Below the pieces are notes generated by a model, which saw only the letters and a list, made by a program, of their open reading frames with translations, did not search any database and was not told where the DNA came from. The position numbers and the translations under genes were made by a program. From a virus: 64,000 nt of DNA. The stretch is taken from UHGV virus genome UHGV-0375936, one strand, 5' to 3'. Shown here in pieces: positions 1,891 to 63,166 of the stretch; position 1 is the stretch's first letter; every line of letters begins with the position of its first letter.

Positions 1891-3404
1891 TCAAGCTCCT
1901 TATCCGTCAATATTCGTTTGTTTGAATAATAGCCGCACCACAACCCATGATATTTTTCCCCGATATAAACCAACGCGTACTCGATATACTGCCGTTCTGG
2001 ACGCCGTACCGCCACGTAGAATCGTCCTTCTGGTTCTTTCATACGGTTGATTTCCGTACGCGTCGGTATGTCGATACCTCGAGTAAGGATGGTTTTAACC
2101 TTGTTTTTGCTACCTGGGATATGGATGGTTACGTCAAAACCTTTATCTACGTTACGATAAAAGTCTTTCTTCGGCTTACCTTTCTCATCGTAAAGCAGGT
2201 CAGTAATGTCGTTCATTACGACTGAGTTTTTCCCCTCCATGGCATCGCGTAACCAACCTGCAAGCTCATCACGAATCGTAATGCAGCGATAAGACAATAA
2301 CGCGGGACGAAGAATTCGTGTAATCGAAAGATCTTCAAACATCCACAGGTTTTTGTCTTCGCTAAAATGCATCCGTTCGATAGGAATACCGTTAGCTGCG
2401 GCTTCTGCGAACTTCTTACGTTTTACGAATAAGTTAAATACAACGGCGATGGGATCAAATTGACGTAAACGGGGCACCCCTTCCCACGCTTTCGCAGAGT
2501 GGGTATTTACCAACTCGTATACGTTATCCCACGGTTCTTTGGTAAACATTACGCAGAATTGTGCGTCTGGAATGTACTTACCAACGAAGACGATATCGTC
2601 CTTCTGTTTTGCATGGTTCCCACCGAACATGTAATAAAGTTTATTACCGTTAACCGTAACCGTGGGATGCGGTTCGTTCACCATCGGGTAACAGAACTTC
2701 GTAACACAGATATCAGGAAAGGCAGACAAATTGACACCCTCGCCAACAACTTCTGGTTGCTGTTCTTCCTCAGGCATCTCGTCTTTTGACCAATACGGTG
2801 TATAGTCTAACCCATCACCTCGAGCCGAAATACTTGAACCTTTCCGTGCTAACTCGTCGGCACGTTCGTTTCCATAACGTCCTGAATGCCCTTTAATTTT
2901 AAGGACACGAACACCTTTCCCTTCTTTCTTTAACCGCTGTTTAACCTCCCACATCCGTTGGATTAATTCCAAGTTCGCAATAGGTGTACCGTCTGCACGA
3001 CGCCAACCGCGTGCAGCCCAACCATCAATCCAATCGTTATACGTGTTGACAACGTAAGAGGCATCGATATAGATAACATAGTTTTTGGCAACGAAAGGTG
3101 CGTGTTCGAAGACGGTCAGGAAAGCCACGAGTTCTGCAACGTCAGAGTGTGACATTTTTGGTACAGGCACAACGCCGTCAATAAACTCCACAGTTTCTGG
3201 TAAAGGTGGAAGTTTTTCATCCTTGTTTATCTGGCGGTATCCTGACGACGTAATCCCCTCTGGAATAGAGGGATGGCGGTAAACCCGACCATCCTCAATC
3301 GCTTCACGATTAAATAAGTATCCATGAATCCCCGCTCCTGTACCGAGCGGGGAGGTCAAATGGCTACCATCCGTGTAAATTACTGCAACATCAACGTTCT
3401 TCAT
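1884..3404 (-). CDS. RNase H-domain protein with about 300-aa C-terminal extension
   Basis: N-terminus VAVIYTDGS ... KIKGHSGRYGNERADELARKG resembles RNase HI active-site and C-terminal motifs; remainder unassigned. Confidence 0.65.
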   Translation of the reverse strand: MKNVDVAVIYTDGSHLTSPLGTGAGIHGYLFNREAIEDGRVYRHPSIPEGITSSGYRQINKDEKLPPLPETVEFIDGVVPVPKMSHSDVAELVAFLTVFEHAPFVAKNYVIYIDASYVVNTYNDWIDGWAARGWRRADGTPIANLELIQRMWEVKQRLKKEGKGVRVLKIKGHSGRYGNERADELARKGSSISARGDGLDYTPYWSKDEMPEEEQQPEVVGEGVNLSAFPDICVTKFCYPMVNEPHPTVTVNGNKLYYMFGGNHAKQKDDIVFVGKYIPDAQFCVMFTKEPWDNVYELVNTHSAKAWEGVPRLRQFDPIAVVFNLFVKRKKFAEAAANGIPIERMHFSEDKNLWMFEDLSITRILRPALLSYRCITIRDELAGWLRDAMEGKNSVVMNDITDLLYDEKGKPKKDFYRNVDKGFDVTIHIPGSKNKVKTILTRGIDIPTRTEINRMKEPEGRFYVAVRRPERQYIEYALVYIGEKYHGLWCGYYSNKRILTDKELEC

Positions 3405-3406
3405 TC

Positions 3407-4141
3407 TTAATCCCTGGTTAATTGATCACGAATCTGTGGCGCAACATACTCGCCTGTTTTCAGTTCTTCGTGACAGGCTTTGGCGCGTTCAAACCCGTAT
3501 TGGCGTGTGACCAAAGCGAGGTGGTAAATACGTGCCGTGGTGTAGGCTTCTTTTGCTGCATCCCACATTGCGTGGTGCTCAAAAGCGGGCTTACCGCGTG
3601 TCCAGTAAATTTGCTCTACGGTTAAGTCAGGCTCGAAACCAAATGCAAAGGCTAAACGTTCTGCAGTACGATCGCTATCCAGTGCACTAAATTTACGGAA
3701 CTTCCCTGGCGGAATATCACATTGTGCGAACGCGTTCATGAAAATCGGTGCATCAAAGTCAGGACCACGCATGGTAATAACAAATTCATGTTTTGCGGTA
3801 ATCTCCCCGAGCCATTTTTGCATCGCCCACAGTGCGTCCGGCAATGCTGTCGTCCCACCCCATGCTTCCGCATAGGCTTCACGAGACGGTGCGTATTCGG
3901 GTTCGCCTTTACCTTCCCACCAACCAACAGTTTGTGGGTCTTCGTGGAAAATGGCTTTTGCTTTAGGATCGTTAGGATCAATACGGATGTATGAGGAACC
4001 GACCATTTTCAATGTAGGGACGTCAAAGGCCACTAAACCTGCACTTAACAGATAAGCATCGGGACGTAATGATTTGGTTTCAGCATCAGCGCCAATAACC
4101 AGCGTCGGTGTGTACGGGGTGACAATTTTTGGGTAGGTCAT
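3407..4141 (-). CDS. putative DEDDh-type 3'-5' exonuclease
   Basis: Candidate Exo I (GADAET), Exo II (GPDFDAPIF) and Exo III (HHAMWDAAKEAY) motifs; AGGAGAA RBS. Confidence 0.5.
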   Translation of the reverse strand: MTYPKIVTPYTPTLVIGADAETKSLRPDAYLLSAGLVAFDVPTLKMVGSSYIRIDPNDPKAKAIFHEDPQTVGWWEGKGEPEYAPSREAYAEAWGGTTALPDALWAMQKWLGEITAKHEFVITMRGPDFDAPIFMNAFAQCDIPPGKFRKFSALDSDRTAERLAFAFGFEPDLTVEQIYWTRGKPAFEHHAMWDAAKEAYTTARIYHLALVTRQYGFERAKACHEELKTGEYVAPQIRDQLTRD

Positions 4142-4232
4142 GTTGAATTCTCCTGTTAGTCTACATTAAAATAGTCGTAAACGTTAAAAAGAAAGACCCT
4201 CCTGTACCACGAAAGGGTACAGGAGGGGGGTG

Positions 4233-19295: not shown

Positions 19296-19373
19296 GTTCT
19301 CCTAAAATGGTTTTCGTTAAGTGAGAGCTTTTGTACTCTCACCTAAGTAATATATATCTGAAATTATTTTTAA
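19296..19373 (-). promoter_or_regulatory. conserved AT-rich box plus 5' hairpin element (copy 1)
   Basis: Near-identical to 55955..56027; minus strand reads TTTCAGATATATATTACTTAGG then hairpin GTGAGAG-TACAAAAGC-CTCTCAC then RBS and ATG. Confidence 0.45.
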
Positions 19374-23352: not shown

Positions 23353-23558
23353 GATTTACTCGCTAATCTCAATAAAGGGGAGTCTATTATTATGGATTGT
23401 AAAAGAGGTATAAGGAAGTCACTACGTTCCTCTGGGAAGAGTATGTCGGTATACTACGTATACCTCCGCTATTTATATCCGTATACATAATGCCCCCTAC
23501 CCCCTACCGGTATCCCGAGTAGCAGAATAAAGGGACATAATGTAATTTTTAGTACCTG

Positions 23559-23639
23559 TTATCGGAAGGTACTAAATGGAGTGTAGTCTTTAAGCCGTTT
23601 GAGCAGCTCATTGAGACTTTCTTTCTTTTTAGTAGACAT
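23559..23639 (-). CDS. candidate 26-aa basic peptide
   Basis: ATG preceded by GGAGAG RBS and by the conserved AT-rich box/hairpin; MSTKKKESLNELLKRLKDYTPFSTFR; below track cutoff. Confidence 0.3.
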   Translation of the reverse strand: MSTKKKESLNELLKRLKDYTPFSTFR

Positions 23640-23691
23640 GATCTGTCTCTCCAAATGGTTTAATCAATCCGTTTCGAATGAAACGTGCTCG

Positions 23692-23747
23692 TAGGGACTG
23701 AACTGGTACTTCAGTCCCTATTCACTTAAGTAAAATATATCTGAAAT
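23692..23747 (-). promoter_or_regulatory. conserved AT-rich box plus hairpin element (variant copy)
   Basis: Minus strand ATTTCAGATATATTTTACTTAAG followed by 10-bp stem hairpin AGGGACTGAA/TTCAGTCCCT. Confidence 0.4.
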
Positions 23748-23772
23748 CAATTCCGATCTAAGGAACGTCCCG

Positions 23773-24738
23773 ATGGAGAAATCCAGTGTTGATTTTTTCT
23801 CAATTGGTATCGTCGCGGAAGACAAACCCCGTGGTACAGATCGGGTAAAAGTGATACCAATTGAAACCAACTTTGCTAACCCTACCGTGGTGCAATCTGT
23901 TTCTTCAGCAACTGAAAAGACGCATGAAACGTCCGGTGCAACAGATAACCTAACCATTAAGACGGGTAACACGATAACCGCAAAGTGGTGGAAGTTTAAC
24001 TCCAACCGAATTAATTCCCCTGACGTTAAACGAGAAGACTACGTTATCTTGTTGCGTTTGGGGAAAACCGATATTTATTTTTGGATTGATCTGAACTTCG
24101 CTAACGTTAAGCGATTAGAAGATGCGGTTTATGCGTGGTCGGCTGACCCTGAAAACCAAATGGCGGATGACTTGTCCAATGCGTATGTGTTGAACGTTTC
24201 GACGATTGACAAACATATCACGCTAAGAACGAGTATGGTGAATGGCGAGAAAGCGGCGTGGTTGTTTCAGTTTGATAATGCAAACGGTACGTGGCAGTGC
24301 GTTGACCATAAAGGAAACAAGTATTACATTAACTCGGTTGAAGATGATCTCGGGTTTGAGAATGCGATGCTTTCAAAAGTGAACATCAACAAAGAAGATG
24401 CGTTCATTTATTCAAAGCGTTCTATTAACCTGGAAACGAAAACGATTAATGAAAAATGTGAAGTCCGCAATACGGAAGCAGCGAATTCCGTTACGTTTAA
24501 AACACAAACCTGGTTAACAGAAGCGGGCAGTTCGACAACGTTTAAAACGCCGAACTTTAAACAAGAAGGGAAGGAAGCGATGTTCACCGGTAATTTGGAA
24601 ATCGCTAAGAACTTCAAATACGGTGGTACGGGTGAAGGCGTGGGTGTCTTTACGGTTAAAGATGCCATTATTTCCGGTATTACCTTTAGCGTTCACATTC
24701 ACCAAGGTAAACATGGCCCGACATCACCTCCACAGTAA
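23773..24738 (+). CDS. hypothetical protein (possibly virion-associated)
   Basis: 321-aa ORF, first gene of the plus-strand structural block. Confidence 0.55.
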   Translation: MEKSSVDFFSIGIVAEDKPRGTDRVKVIPIETNFANPTVVQSVSSATEKTHETSGATDNLTIKTGNTITAKWWKFNSNRINSPDVKREDYVILLRLGKTDIYFWIDLNFANVKRLEDAVYAWSADPENQMADDLSNAYVLNVSTIDKHITLRTSMVNGEKAAWLFQFDNANGTWQCVDHKGNKYYINSVEDDLGFENAMLSKVNINKEDAFIYSKRSINLETKTINEKCEVRNTEAANSVTFKTQTWLTEAGSSTTFKTPNFKQEGKEAMFTGNLEIAKNFKYGGTGEGVGVFTVKDAIISGITFSVHIHQGKHGPTSPPQ

Positions 24739-24945
24739 TTCCCCTTTTTCTTACGTTGTTTTTATATATTGTGACCTGACGTTGGTAAAACTTTTTATCA
24801 ACACTTTTCTTAAACCCATCGTTTAGTTAAGCAGGCCACTTTTTTTCGCGCACTCTACTCCTCCCTACGGGGAGGAGCTATCTTATGCTTCGGTTGTAAC
24901 ACACGTCGGTCTTAGACCACTAACCTTTTGAAATGGAGAGCTGTT

Positions 24946-25155
24946 ATGTCTATTAAAGAGTTCTCTTCTGCTGAGCATATTCCAGAAGAGTTTAAGAAAA
25001 TCGGTAACGTTAGCGCTTTCGGCGATACCGTTGATCATGTAACTGGTAAACTGGCTGCTGAAGCTGAAAAAATTGGCGGCGACGCATTCAAAGTTATCGG
25101 TATTTCCGGCAACAACAAACTGCACGGTAACGCGATTGTCTACAAAAAAGACTAA
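24946..25155 (+). CDS. small DUF1471-like (YdgH/BhsA/McbA-type) domain protein
   Basis: GGAGAG RBS then ATG; KIGNVSAFGDTVDHVTGKLAAEAEKIGGDAFKVIGISG...NAIVYK matches that small-domain pattern; no signal peptide. Confidence 0.45.
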   Translation: MSIKEFSSAEHIPEEFKKIGNVSAFGDTVDHVTGKLAAEAEKIGGDAFKVIGISGNNKLHGNAIVYKKD

Positions 25156-25156
25156 G

Positions 25157-25216
25157 CGAAAAAAAAAACGTGCTACTCCTACCCTCTAAGAGGGTAGGAG
25201 GTTACTTTATTTTTTT
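25157..25216. terminator. bidirectional Rho-independent terminator
   Basis: Hairpin TCCTACCCT-CTAAG-AGGGTAGGA flanked by A-run and T-run between convergent genes. Confidence 0.6.
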
Positions 25217-26469
25217 CGTGCTCTAAAGCGATGCATTTCTAAATACACTTTTTCCCAGGGACCGAATGGACCGACGATTGCTTGCGCGTCGTTAATCTTC
25301 TTCTGATTATACCACCGGGCTTCACGAAAGACGTAGTTTTGACTGTCGAACTCTGTGGTGTTAAATACCCACTCACCCTCCTCCCATGTAGGCCAATAGC
25401 CCACCGTCTTTCCGAAGCGGTTGTTTAAGTACCCTAACGGTTTTTCAGAATCAGGATCGTTAGGGTCCTTGAGATAACAACGTCCCCAAACTGCGTTATG
25501 CGATACACCCACAACCTCTTCTTCTAAATACGGATTATCTACCGTAAAGATAAACGAAGACTCGTGGAGTAAAAGCGCCTTTAATGTTTCGGGGTTGCGA
25601 ATACGTTGGACATTAGTAGGTGTTGATAAATCCCCCACACCGATGGCGTCCCAGTCGTAATAGCGACGGGTTTCCAGAACGGTCCGCGCAAGATCAAAAT
25701 TCGGTAAAGAAATCATGATCGCACGGTCGGAGAAATAACCGCCCGGAGGCAACCAACGTAACAGTCCACCGATGACGAAACCCACCGTTTTTCCCGTAAT
25801 AGATTCGGGTAGCGAAATCATTAACGTGGAGTAATAGTCACGTGTGGTGTCGAGCTTGTTTAGGGTAAGGTTGGCAATGGGGTAAGTTTTAACATTCCCT
25901 AACTGACCAAAAACCATACAGCCGATATCTGGCGTACAGGCCCTTCGTACAATTTTACCGGCCCCGGGTAATCGGACACCTACGGTATCTGTCTGATGCG
26001 CTACCCATTGACCGTTAATGTTGTACAGTACACTATTACGGTATTTGTCCTTCCACTTGTCCTCACAAACGATGACAACGTCATCAGCATCATCTAAGCT
26101 GAAATCTTGACTGTGGTGGTACCCCGGCGGACACAGGTACGTTTCAACGGGCACGTCAGCATTAATCGATTGGTAATGTGCCCAACTGAATTCGAGTTTC
26201 GGCAATCCGGCCTTTAGAGTGGGGATGACGTTTCCGGCTTTTTCATTTAACCAATCTTGTAAAGTGTCTGTTCGGTTTTGTAGTTCGGCAAGATGGTATT
26301 GGCTGACTAACGTATAGTCTTTACCAAGTGCACTTAAACCGATCTCAAAGGTGTGGTAGTCTGAACACAACGTATTTAAGGGTTGCGTGACATCGATGGC
26401 TCCCCAGGTACGGGACTCTCGAGAGAAGCCAAAAGCGCTGTCGGGCCGCACTTGATAAGCAGTAGTCAC
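25207..26469 (-). CDS. hypothetical protein
   Basis: 420-aa ORF, lone minus-strand gene diverging from the fibre genes. Confidence 0.55.
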   Translation of the reverse strand: MTTAYQVRPDSAFGFSRESRTWGAIDVTQPLNTLCSDYHTFEIGLSALGKDYTLVSQYHLAELQNRTDTLQDWLNEKAGNVIPTLKAGLPKLEFSWAHYQSINADVPVETYLCPPGYHHSQDFSLDDADDVVIVCEDKWKDKYRNSVLYNINGQWVAHQTDTVGVRLPGAGKIVRRACTPDIGCMVFGQLGNVKTYPIANLTLNKLDTTRDYYSTLMISLPESITGKTVGFVIGGLLRWLPPGGYFSDRAIMISLPNFDLARTVLETRRYYDWDAIGVGDLSTPTNVQRIRNPETLKALLLHESSFIFTVDNPYLEEEVVGVSHNAVWGRCYLKDPNDPDSEKPLGYLNNRFGKTVGYWPTWEEGEWVFNTTEFDSQNYVFREARWYNQKKINDAQAIVGPFGPWEKVYLEMHRFRARKK

Positions 26470-26537
26470 AGCTCTTTTCCTCTATAGATTCAAGTCATAG
26501 TATGAACTTCGACGCCCACGGACTATAGGAGTAGAGA

Positions 26538-29500
26538 ATGGCTGTCGTCCTAGACCCACACTTCAAAAAACCGGGGAATAAAATAACCGGTGAAGCGGTC
26601 GCCGTCATTGGTACGAAATACCGAATGTTGGTACCTGCCCACGCCCCTTTTTTCACCACATCCCTGGTGGTCAAGAGCGGCGGCAAAACACTGACCTTAG
26701 GCGACGATTACATTATTACACACCCGTACGAGACCGGTATGTTGCGCACAGCCTATCTCATTCACGGGATGATTTGGATTGTTAATGACAAATACAAATC
26801 GAATTTTACGGTAGATTACCACGCCGTTGGTTGTGGTCAGGCTACCCAACAACAGATTACCGCAGAACGCGAACTCAATAAAGATAAATACCCGACTACG
26901 TGTCAGTGGGACACCGTCATCGGGGACGTTTACTTTCCGCCGGTCGATATCCAGTTCGATTGGGAGAATTGGAAAGGTGAACTGGAATTAATGCAGGCTA
27001 TTGCTGGATTAGGCGATTCGTTAGGGGAAGTCGTGAGTCGACTTAACCCCATCGCACGCAATACCCTGGATTTAGAATACCGTGCTAACAGCAAGGTTAT
27101 CACTTCCGAGCAGTATGCCGCATACGACAATAAAGGTGGGTTCACCTACAACACTACCCGTCATCGTTATAGCTTGAGTTATAAAACTGCAACCTTTAAC
27201 GACTACGCCCTGTCAGTGAAACATAGAATTCCTGCTATTCTGCCAGACATGACGAAATTGAATCCAAACGAACAGATCGATTGGATGCTCTGTTATGCTA
27301 ACGGCGGGGCAAGTATTCTACGGCTGCAGCTAAAACAGCGCAAAATCTCACTGGTCTTAACGGTCGCTATTGGTAGCGGTTCAACAAACTACGATTATAC
27401 GTTAATCAACGGTTTAACTGACGATGAGTTAAAAAACGATATCGATTTTAGTGTAACCCGTCAACCCGGAAACGGTGTTTACGTCATCGTAGTAAAAACA
27501 AATAAACAGACCATGGATTACACATTCAACGTCGATACGCCGCCTGATGAGTTCTCGGCAGGGTATTCGAAAACGGATGTTGCTAAATGGTTGAAGTCTA
27601 AAACGAACATTAACCTGAACTGGTATGCTGGACAAAAAGATTATGTTCAAATTCGTTCTTTACCCGGCGCACCAGAACCTGACGTCGACAACGATGTTTA
27701 CCAGTTAATAGTTAAATACCATCAATTAGTTGAGCAGCTGTATCGTAACGCGCCTGCACACGAACACGTTACACGTAAGGACAACCCGCACACCGATACG
27801 TGGGGCCCGATCCGTGCGTTACAGCTGAATGGTATTGCGTCGGATGCCGCGTTAGCTTACGGGAAAACGAAACAACAGTTAACGGATTATGTTAATGCTA
27901 AGTACCCAACACAAGCAACGTTAACCGCACAGAAAAAACTGCTTCGTGAATCGGCGAACAAGAACGTTAACGGCACGATTACCACACTTCCGGGTTTTAC
28001 TTCGTTCACGACGGAAGTTGATCCGGTTTCGATGTCGAAATACGTGAGTCCTAGTTTTAGCGAAAGCTACGTTAGTAATGGTCACAGGTATCACGGTGCG
28101 CTTCGTTACACAGGAACGAAAAGCGGTTTCAGTGCTAACTTTAATGCGGTGCCTGCCAACCTGCAAGATATTGACTTTATTGTTACCGGACGTAAAACAG
28201 CGTCTGGTAACGAAGCTGTCGGTGCAGTTGGTTTGCGTTTCTACGAAAACCCCGGTAGTAACTCCGGTAAGTTTGTAGAGATTAACGGACAAATCTGGGC
28301 TGGTACCCTTACTATCAGTCTGACATTGAACGGTTACGGGAGTCCGTTACCGTCGGTGCGTTATATTTCTCAAGCCCCTAATCCGGCAATACCGGATGGA
28401 GATTTTACGCTACGTTTTCAACTGAAGCGTACAGGGAACGTGTTTGACGTCGTTATTACCGTAAACGGTAAAACGTATAGCGCCCGGATTAACTTCAATA
28501 ACATGGACGCTGCGTTAGAAGCATTAGAGAATCAGCACCACTTTAAATCGCTGATCAATAATGTTGCCGATGGCGTCAAAATTAGTTCGCAAAACAAAGG
28601 TAACACGGTTACCATTAAGAAAGCACCGGATGTCGTTGACGGAACTCGTTTAGGTGCCCAGTTTGTCGTTGATCCGAAATCCATTAAGTTTATTGGCCAA
28701 GGTTCAACTGATGTTAACGTAGGAAATAACCCCGTAACGTTCCAAGCAGGTACTAACCAGCTTATGTTGTATCCTGACGATCGTGGGTTACAGTGGCGTG
28801 GTAAAAAACTCTTAGACCCTACCACCGTGGCCCCGTATCTGCCAGGTAATACCGCAGGTGGTACCGGTTTATTCTACGCAAGCTCGACAACAACAGTTAC
28901 GATCACTGGTAGCGGGATAAAAGCTTCGCCGTTCGTAGCGACCTTTATTCTCCCTACCGCGACCGATACAACGGCTCTGGCAGCTTGGCAGTTGACCGAT
29001 GAGTTCGGTACTGCTGAAAACCTTGCAGCAACGCCAGCACTGATTGAAAAACTGGATGCGGAGTTCACCGGTAAGTTAGTTGCAGTTAAATCGTACATTA
29101 ACGACATGCAGCTTACCAGCTCGGTTACTATCGATAAGATTACCTTCGGTTTAGGTAATGTTGCGAATACGCCCGATGTCAATTTACCGATTTCTACAGC
29201 ACAGCGTGCGGAGTTAGATAAATACTCGCCTAAGGTTCACCAACACCCGTTTACCGCTTTTGGTACCGGGAACGCAACCACAGCGAAACGCGGTCTGATT
29301 AAATTTGGTCTGGATGTGGATGATGCGACTTTAGCACTCGATGGGAGTGTGGTAATGGCGCAGACTTCCCAGATTGAAAAATTGGAGAGTGCTGTCGGCG
29401 GCGTTGACTCGGAGGCACGTCTTGATATCATACGTTTTGGTGAGTCTGGTAACGACTTAATAGACGTTACGGTCAAAGACAAAATTCTGGTCACGCTTCC

Positions 29501-47721: not shown

Positions 47722-47786
47722 TATCTTAAATCCTTAAAATGAAAGTTAAAGAAATATCGGGGGAGGTTACCCCCCCCCCGAATCAA

Positions 47787-55954: not shown

Positions 55955-56027
55955 TCTCCTAAAATGGTTCGTTAAGTGAGAGCTTTTGTACTCTCACCTA
56001 GGTAATATATATCTGAAATTATTTTTA
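55955..56027 (-). promoter_or_regulatory. conserved AT-rich box plus 5' hairpin element (copy 2)
   Basis: Near-identical to 19296..19373 over about 75 bp, including RBS, hairpin and TTTCAGATATATATTACCTAGG. Confidence 0.45.
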
Positions 56028-58113: not shown

Positions 58114-58163
58114 TTAATGCTCCTTTAGGTAAATGGTGTGGGGGGGGGGTAGTTAATGCTTCG

Positions 58164-60339: not shown

Positions 60340-60381
60340 GTGAACGTAAATTTCACTCTCTCCTAGGTAATATATATCTGA
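60340..60381 (-). promoter_or_regulatory. conserved AT-rich box plus hairpin element (variant copy)
   Basis: Minus strand TTCTCAGATATATATTACCTAGG followed by hairpin GAGTGAA/TTCACTC. Confidence 0.4.
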
Positions 60382-63068: not shown

Positions 63069-63122
63069 GTATGTTTACCTCCTACGGTTGGGGGTCATAA
63101 AATATTGACTAAAAAACATTCA

Positions 63123-63132
63123 CCCCCCCCCC
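63123..63132. repeat. C10 homopolymer tract next to a 12-bp inverted repeat
   Basis: Ten consecutive C upstream of the 62556..63068 start, followed by ATTATTTTCAAC-CGCTTTCA-GTTGAAAATAAT. Confidence 0.6.
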
Positions 63133-63166
63133 ACGATTATTTTCAACCGCTTTCAGTTGAAAATAA

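Follow-up and report, generated by a model that had tools for sequence, protein, structure and literature searches.

A DUF1471 domain protein without an export signal, encoded between the spike and baseplate genes of SPN3US-like jumbo phages

Why would a phage carry a protein of a family that its hosts place in the periplasm or secrete, and carry it without the signal for export? The question is raised by a small gene at 24946-25155 in the UHGV virus genome UHGV-0375936, of which we analyzed one stretch of 64,000 nucleotides (the window). Its predicted product of 69 amino acids carries a DUF1471 (YdgH/BhsA/McbA-like) domain. DUF1471 is a family of Enterobacterales, with 5-10 paralogs per species (PMC11705850). 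An earlier note on this DNA had read the gene as a phage moron with a DUF1471-like product. We find that the domain is genuine and its leader lost, and the evidence points to a long-resident phage gene.

The window encodes a member of the DUF1471 family

The gene is defined by family, fold, an upstream stop, selection and codon usage:

24946-25155, plus strand: DUF1471 (YdgH/BhsA/McbA-like) coding sequence, leaderless product of 69 amino acids

The open reading frame starts with ATG and ends with TAA (25153-25155), and the product has a mass of 7.36 kDa and an isoelectric point of 6.3. A profile search for DUF1471, which the earlier note had called for, matched Pfam PF07338 (YdgH_BhsA-like, DUF1471) at 38.2 bits, above the gathering score of 27 (E 1.4e-9), aligning residues 17-67 of the protein with profile positions 2-55 of 55. 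This score and the matching predicted fold confirm the DUF1471-like identity suspected in that note. Orthologs score 29.7-68.1 bits with the same profile. PHROG 8068 is matched end to end (residues 1-69, profile positions 1-70 of 70, E 4.5e-32), Salmonella YahO is recovered when solved structures are searched with a profile built from the phage family (E 1.6e-6), and the C-terminal G-x-A-x-x-Y-K motif of DUF1471 is kept. We assign the product as the ortholog of SPN3US gp172 and PHROG 8068, based on the full-length profile match and the same gene neighborhood. The “BhsA” labels in some phage records appear over-specific because the best NCBIfam model, BhsA (NF047859), matches at 46.8 bits and its equivalog cutoff of 90 is not reached; the protein is under the cutoff of every NCBIfam equivalog.

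In comparison with the SPAsTU, Asesino and Huxley orthologs, the proportion of nonsynonymous differences (pN) is 0.13-0.22 and that of synonymous differences (pS) is 0.56-0.73, so that synonymous sites are near saturation and the protein is under purifying selection. Judged by this ratio, the open reading frame is a real coding gene.

An AlphaFold2 model of the protein has a mean predicted local distance difference test score (pLDDT) of 89.4 and the order beta-beta-alpha-beta-beta. The best Foldseek matches in the PDB are mostly solved DUF1471 domains with template modeling (TM) scores of about 0.73-0.78 (YdgH 4evu and 2m2j, SrfN 2ma8 and 2jna, YahO 2noc), and RcsF is also among the matches. 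According to the model, the phage protein keeps the canonical DUF1471 fold.

The export signal is absent

A signal peptide and a periplasmic or secreted location are stated for members of the family (PMC11705850), and both are absent in the phage protein. An in-frame TAG at 24913, just 11 codons 5′ of the ATG, leaves too little space for a signal peptide. The protein has an acidic, polar N-terminus, whose most hydrophobic 10-residue stretch within the first 30 amino acids scores 0.40, versus a median of 2.36 for the same measure in bacterial homologues (n=84). Together the upstream stop and the hydropathy values bear out the missing signal peptide, which the earlier note had also reported. There is a clear hydrophobic leader in 70 of the 84 bacterial homologues, and the remaining ones appear truncated or mis-started. 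All phage copies examined begin at the DUF1471 domain, and with an E. coli-type BhsA precursor as query the alignment begins at residue 27 or beyond, past the leader, in every phage. The leader is a feature of DUF1471 proteins and not of the Pfam domain, and domain membership stands.

Leaderless YdgH is inactive, and a periplasmic location is required for the native function of YdgH (PMC11705850). Because host DUF1471 proteins act in the periplasm and the leaderless form of YdgH does not work, the phage protein cannot do the host periplasmic job during infection. As predicted from its sequence, it must be confined to the cytoplasm for as long as the inner membrane is intact.

The gene has a fixed position in one clade of jumbo phages

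At the DNA level the window region shares about 74% identity with SPN3US-like jumbo phages that infect Salmonella, Erwinia, E. coli and Proteus, and we classify the window phage from its sequence as an uncultured SPN3US-like nucleus-forming jumbo phage. The exact 69 amino acid protein is present on metagenomic contigs of about 220-228 kb (876 blocks of the assembly collection) and in IMG/VR; the source of the window is therefore a widespread uncultured phage. Among isolates, SPAsTU has the closest copy (80% identical), and SPN3US gp172 is only 44% identical. By these identities the window adds a divergent ortholog whose identity to isolate copies does not exceed 80%.

A tblastn search found the protein in 60 phage records, all of them jumbo phages of Enterobacterales, and among 50,697 phage records DUF1471 occurs in only one clade, again of jumbo phages infecting Enterobacterales. 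Where a host is stated for a carrier phage, it is Salmonella, Erwinia, Cronobacter, E. coli or Proteus, and the named bacterial neighbors are Enterobacterales. We take the carrier phages to be strictly lytic. They belong to the chimalliviruses, the nucleus-forming family of jumbo phages (PMC11724907).

The order of spike gene, DUF1471 gene and convergent gp171-like gene is fixed in Seoulvirus, Erskinevirus, Machinavirus, Wellingtonvirus and Derbicusvirus, holding in all nine isolate loci and all 19 metagenomic or IMG/VR loci. The two neighbors in the window are:

23773-24738, plus strand: central baseplate spike gene, homolog of SPN3US gp173 and phiKZ gp164 (PHROG 3216; BLASTP against phiKZ NP_803730.2, E 7e-24)
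25207-26469, minus strand: convergent outer-baseplate gene, homolog of SPN3US gp171 and phiKZ gp130 (PHROG 3337)

In chimalliviruses outside the clade (Erwinia phage RAY, Vibrio phage Yong MS31 and the phiKZ-like PA_ZH1) a DUF1471 gene next to the spike gene is absent. CoreGenes data show gp172 to be common to SPN3US, PhiEaH2 and CR5 only (Thomas et al. 2016). The domain is already annotated, as “DUF1471 domain-containing protein” in RefSeq for SPN3US (YP_009153466.1) and as “BhsA” in several Erwinia phage records, and PF07338 is precomputed for metagenomic copies. In the papers searched, we found no discussion of the phage DUF1471 family beyond proteomic mentions.

Wellington-like phages (Wellington gp189, Kwan, pEa_SNUABM_11) have a second, tandem DUF1471 gene directly 3′ of the first. 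Wellington gp189 (3287-3847 of the examined locus) has 186 amino acids, comprising a DUF1471 domain (29.7 bits) and an acidic low-complexity tail of about 120 residues that is probably disordered. It is the sole real multi-part relative of the phage family; two long proteins matched by the profile (P0053 and P0044), considered as clues to fusions, were rejected as spurious or low-complexity matches. PADLOC defense-system models gave no match.

A probable old capture

Strain variants that differ in the flanking proteins (94.5-99.7% identity) have one and the same DUF1471 protein (100%), and it is 90% identical between one Salmonella and one Erwinia phage whose fiber proteins are only 43-54% identical. 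Its identity tracks that of its neighbors, the SPN3US lineage excepted. The G+C content of the gene is 42.5%, versus 44.5% for the window. Synteny, selection and composition favor a single capture long ago, after which the gene stayed, over a recent moron.

The earlier note had also called for a phylogeny against host homologues. A neighbor-joining tree (500 bootstraps, 58 columns, 94 sequences) was obtained, with phage monophyly in 18 of 500 bootstraps and no stable bacterial sister group; this tree cannot place the phage copies in any paralog group or name a donor. Because it does not resolve phage monophyly, the single origin is argued from synteny and the common loss of the leader. Horizontal acquisition with repurposing, as the note had put it, holds in part: a host origin with a change of role is plausible, and a recent or variable acquisition is contradicted.

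SPN3US gp172 (4001-4210 of the examined locus) is 43-46% identical to the copy in SPAsTU, a phage classified in the same genus, while for the spike and gp171 proteins on either side identity is 75-85%. The difference suggests that in the SPN3US lineage this one gene evolved fast or had its allele replaced.

The gene is laid out as a separate transcription unit

Four elements flank the coding sequence:

24858-24877, plus strand: G+C-rich hairpin CTCCTCCC-TACG-GGGAGGAG, after the spike gene
24884-24887, plus strand: candidate TATG start motif of the non-virion RNA polymerase type; G at 24887 as +1 gives a 59-nt leader
24935-24940, plus strand: Shine-Dalgarno sequence GGAGAG, 5 nt before the ATG
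25159-25216, both strands: bidirectional intrinsic terminator (A10, 11-bp stem with a 3-nt loop, T-run), supported by folding energy

TATG is invariant in six aligned orthologous intergenic regions, where mean column identity is 49%, and is present in nine of nine loci read. In phiKZ, TATG is the late promoter and start-site motif used by the non-virion RNA polymerase, the G being +1, and all four bases are required in vitro (PMC4666361; PMC7598289). By analogy, TATG at 24884-24887 would act as a transcription start in this phage group. The motif is also found about 30 nt before each start in the 68-nt divergent spacer (26470-26537) between the gp171-like gene (minus strand) and the gp170-like gene (plus strand). 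No sigma-70-like promoter was found 5′ of the DUF1471 gene; the single match in 23500-26700 lies inside the spike gene. In relatives, the equivalent of the upstream hairpin is followed by a T-run, which is absent in the window copy.

The Shine-Dalgarno core (A)TGGAG is kept in five of six aligned orthologous loci, the exception being Huxley. The terminator consists of A10 (25159-25168), an 11-bp G+C-rich stem (25176-25200) and T7 (25210-25216), and is positioned to serve the convergent gene (25207-26469, minus strand) too. Its folding energy is -30.7 kcal/mol (z = -6.15), and none of 200 shuffles is as stable. A hairpin with flanking A and T runs occurs in eight of nine orthologous loci; the exception is Wellington, where there is a second DUF1471 gene. 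The gene's own ribosome-binding site and strong bidirectional terminator, both claimed in the earlier note, are borne out, the first by GGAGAG at its distance from the ATG and the second by the folding energy and the A and T runs on both sides. The arrangement is shown to be that of a self-contained unit of predicted elements: conserved TATG, 59-nt leader, strong ribosome-binding site, 69 codons and bidirectional terminator.

The 207-nt upstream spacer is poorly conserved (49% mean column identity) except for two invariant blocks, GCCACTTTTTT and TATG. GCCACTTTTTT (24835-24845) is conserved across four genera and unique in the window (0.04 expected), and T(G/A)TGAC near 24770 is a second block in this part of the spacer (24766-24845) that is conserved across four genera. 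An RNA element in the spacer was rejected: Rfam gave only sub-threshold chance matches to the 207 nt, RNAalifold found no consensus structure for the stretch from TRTGAC to GCCACTTTTTT, and the fold z is only -1.86. The conserved blocks may belong to a promoter, a terminator remnant or a short transcript. In the 26470-26537 spacer, a near-palindrome TCATAGTATGA supplies both TATG copies, and the spacer may be a compact bidirectional late promoter.

The SPN3US ortholog appears abundant and soluble

Abundance and purification data exist for SPN3US gp172, the syntenic ortholog at 44% identity, and apply to it and not to the window protein. In CsCl-purified SPN3US, gp172 is the smallest virion protein (7 kDa), identified by 4 unique peptides and 6 spectra with 81% coverage; its abundance was low and 47(am1) particles lacked it, and spectra per kDa were 0.86 for gp172, 1.00 for gp170 and 0.74 for gp171 (Ali et al. 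2017). Reilly 2020 Table S2 labels gp172 “Tail” and includes the author comment “Unusually high abundance in cell”; the high abundance in cells rests on this comment. The peptide-spectrum matches (PSMs) for gp172 in the same table are:

Crude pellet obtained by differential centrifugation: 13
Two samples taken through a CsCl step gradient alone: 6 and 3
Tailless heads: 2
Lower band of a CsCl step gradient run after differential centrifugation: 0
Tailed particles, step and buoyant-density gradients: 0
Three doubly purified tail-containing samples: 0

The same three tail-containing samples gave 23-39 PSMs for gp171 and 3-27 for gp173 (Reilly 2020 Table S2). gp172 is missing from a deeper 2023 SPN3US dataset, which includes gp171, gp173 and even non-virion proteins at 6-9 PSMs. 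The simplest reading is that gp172 is soluble and abundant and contaminates preparations of lower purity.

The optimal-codon fraction of the window gene is 0.74, which ranks first among 67 open reading frames in the window (median 0.50), with optimal codons taken as those of highly expressed E. coli genes. Codon usage and the abundance comment on the SPN3US ortholog indicate that the gene is probably very highly expressed.

Possible roles

We know of no DUF1471 protein with a known biochemical function. Tentatively, we favor the explanation that the leaderless phage protein is made late and in abundance, is not structural, and acts on a host-specific target by stoichiometric binding. An ancestor of the SPN3US-like jumbo phages would have captured a single-domain DUF1471 gene from an enterobacterial host. 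The captured copy would then have lost its Sec signal peptide and become a fixed, separately transcribed unit between the central-spike and outer-baseplate genes. The protein would serve as an accessory that binds stoichiometrically rather than acting by catalysis, and its target would most likely be host-specific.

As to the site of action, it is possible, if doubtful, that the protein builds up in the cytoplasm, as leaderless endolysins do, and reaches the envelope only when the inner membrane is breached in lysis, or after release to the medium. At the envelope it could interfere with or mimic host DUF1471 or outer-membrane functions. The alternative within the same explanation is a cytoplasmic host target. 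The envelope mechanism is favored because all partners and settings of DUF1471 domains known to us are periplasmic or outer-membrane.

A more far-reaching version, which we consider decidedly unlikely, is that the protein represents a new kind of phage effector stockpiled in very large amounts in the cytoplasm. Delivery to the periplasm or outer membrane could come only at lysis, once the inner membrane is breached, as for canonical leaderless endolysins; there the protein might out-compete or mimic host DUF1471 or RcsF-like envelope proteins and thereby affect the disruption of the outer membrane or the state of neighboring cells. Or, present in abundance, it could soak up a small ligand or ion in the cytoplasm like a sponge, as the dodecin, YbjQ and selenium-binding protein folds would suggest. 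If either were true, loss of its address label would have made a phage weapon of a stress domain that is otherwise exported.

Several points weigh against the favored explanation of a non-structural, host-directed protein. The proteomic data are those of the SPN3US ortholog, and the codon list is one for highly expressed E. coli genes. A 7-kDa protein is easily lost from gels, a point raised by the SPN3US authors themselves. With 81% coverage in CsCl-step-purified wild-type virions, gp172 may be loosely associated with the virion. Position in the baseplate cluster and a TATG motif like that of the neighboring structural genes fit virion assembly equally well; TATG is only 4 nt long and its promoter role is that of a candidate. 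No lysis genes were identified near the DUF1471 gene.

Some of these points would suit an assembly helper, a non-virion or transiently bound factor for the central spike, the outer baseplate or the fibers that is then largely discarded. We regard this as somewhat unlikely. The gene lies between the spike gene and the gp171-like fiber-dock gene in every genome, the TATG motif is common to the adjacent baseplate and fiber genes, and gp172 is abundant in cells, sporadic in particle preparations and highest in crude pellets, which contain assembly intermediates. However, other chimalliviruses have homologous spike, gp130-like and gp131-like proteins and no DUF1471 gene, and the SPN3US-lineage copy has dropped to 43-46% identity while both neighbors are at 75-85%. 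Divergence of the protein does not track the fiber paralogs; co-variation with them, which a fiber-specific chaperone or receptor role would suggest, was examined and no correlation was found. The extreme codon optimization fits a stoichiometric protein better than a catalytic helper, and no DUF1471 protein is known to us as a chaperone.

It is unlikely that the protein is a true low-copy virion component, a tail or baseplate decoration possibly touching the enterobacterial envelope during infection. Such a component would agree with the detection of gp172 in CsCl-purified SPN3US at 81% coverage and at spectra per kDa near those of gp170 and gp171 (Ali et al. 2017), with the “Tail” label (Reilly 2020) and with a gene inside the baseplate cluster. 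It would not agree with the absence of PSMs from doubly purified tailed particles and the three tail-containing samples, the 2 PSMs in tailless heads or the excess in the crude pellet. gp172 is also missing from 47(am1) particles and from the 2023 table, and the phiKZ structural atlas has no equivalent component (PMC13250141).

The two remaining explanations are largely excluded. A classic moron, as the earlier note proposed, would be a recent host gene, expressed autonomously, that changes host stress or biofilm behavior as BhsA or McbA do. This is hardly probable: although the gene is a self-contained unit with its own ribosome-binding site and terminator, and BhsA is the closest of the named bacterial models, it keeps its place and its neighbors in five genera of lytic jumbo phages, has a phage-like G+C content and saturated synonymous sites between orthologs, lacks a sigma-70-like promoter, and without a signal peptide its product cannot reach the compartment of BhsA, McbA and YdgH. 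Of the marks of a moron, the terminator is present, and a host-type promoter, patchy presence and deviating composition are each missing. Least probable is a replacement of the PAAR spike tip (phiKZ gp163.1), for which the equivalent position (directly downstream of the gp164 homolog, same strand) and the lack of a PAAR homolog in Salmonella, Erwinia and Cronobacter jumbo phages and the window could be cited, but SPN3US-like spikes have their own C-terminal HxH motif (absent from phiKZ gp164), RAY has this motif and neither a PAAR nor a DUF1471 gene after its spike gene, the predicted alpha/beta fold is unlike the PAAR cone, and a tip should co-purify with tails, which gp172 does not.

The finding is real and ordinary in kind, since host-derived domains are common in phages and this DUF1471 copy was already annotated. 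Nevertheless, a phage copy that is long kept, strongly selected, probably highly expressed and confined to the cytoplasm amounts to a natural experiment on DUF1471. Its binding partner could reveal a general role of the domain and an undescribed step in the infection of enterobacteria by jumbo phages.

Neighboring genes and other features of the window

The phiKZ homolog of the spike, gp164, is the central baseplate spike in the phiKZ structural atlas, and the gp171/phiKZ gp130 homolog is an outer-baseplate protein above the fiber attachment sites (PMC13250141). SPN3US gp171 is essential and tail-associated (PMC5105663). Three gp131-like fiber paralogs lie beyond the gp171-like gene.

At the spike C-terminus (24670-24738), SPN3US-like and RAY spikes end in ITFSxHxH...G..P, and phiKZ gp164 is without the HxH motif. 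This end resembles the iron-binding apex of the P2 gpV and phi92 gp138 spikes. A PAAR tip gene like phiKZ gp163.1 was not detectable in Salmonella, Erwinia and Cronobacter jumbo phages or in the window. The motif and the lack of a detectable tip gene suggest that the SPN3US-like spike has a built-in tip.

An antisense open reading frame of 80 amino acids (24883-25125, minus strand) overlaps the DUF1471 gene, and a long antisense frame (59-92 codons) is open in most orthologs checked. It was rejected as a gene: no family matches it, and the pattern of selection agrees with the sense frame. Strong codon bias in the sense frame probably explains why the antisense frame is open.

An AT-rich sequence, CAGATATATATTAC, has three exact occurrences and one with a single mismatch in the window (0.02 expected), none of them at the DUF1471 gene. 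All four are on the minus strand, upstream of leftward genes:

19347-19360, minus strand: CAGATATATATTAC, exact
23730-23743, minus strand: CAGATATATATTAC, one mismatch
56002-56015, minus strand: CAGATATATATTAC, exact
60367-60380, minus strand: CAGATATATATTAC, exact

Each site sits inside a longer common stretch, AATAATTTCAGATATATATTACYTAGGWGAGAGT. By analogy with other jumbo phages (PMC7598289), CAGATATATATTAC probably represents the consensus of this phage's early promoters, those of the virion RNA polymerase. The divergent spacer 5′ of the spike gene (23353-23772, 420 nt) has a hairpin of 12 bp, TAGGGACTGAAC...GTACTTCAGTCCCTA, as well as an early-type motif on the minus strand. Intergenic spacers near 47722-47786, 58114-58163 and 63069-63166 contain runs of at least 10 G or C, for example TTCGGGGGGGGGGTAACCTCCCCCGA and ACCCCCCCCCCACACC. 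Some of these runs sit inside terminator-like hairpins and could be slippage-prone.

Comparison with known systems

The closest known counterparts are SPN3US gp172 (SPN3US_0172, YP_009153466.1) and the other PHROG 8068 orthologs, which share the length class (67-73 amino acids), the loss of the leader, the gene position and the terminator layout. The window copy differs from gp172 in being 44% identical and in coming from an uncultured lineage with about 74% DNA identity to any isolate.

Among bacterial proteins, E. coli BhsA/YcfR (ComC) and the single-domain YbiJ, YahO, McbA and YhcN have the Pfam domain and the fold in common with the phage protein. BhsA has roles in stress, biofilm formation and copper permeability. 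The phage protein aligns to the mature part of BhsA (model positions 30-85 of 85), and in place of the BhsA-type leader it has a short predicted N-terminal beta-strand (MSIKEF). Unlike BhsA-type proteins, the phage copy has no signal peptide and is carried by a lytic phage. The nearest solved structures are YahO (2noc, 2ma4), the YdgH domains (4evu, 2m2j) and SrfN (2ma8, 2jna), to which identity is only 17-25%. All three proteins are exported, periplasmic or secreted, whereas the phage protein is without an export signal.

Other fold neighbors are the C-terminal domain of RcsF (2y1b, query-normalized TM score (TMq) 0.85), 2jz7 (0.72) and dodecins (about 0.55-0.62). RcsF, dodecins and the YbjQ and selenium-binding proteins are alike in being small alpha/beta sandwiches, and their sequence relationship to the phage protein is not significant, so the resemblance is one of fold only. 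The PAAR tip protein phiKZ gp163.1 is a positional analogue only, encoded by a small gene just downstream of the central-spike gene on the same strand; in sequence and fold it is unrelated to the DUF1471 protein, whose SPN3US ortholog gp172 does not behave as a tail protein in proteomics.

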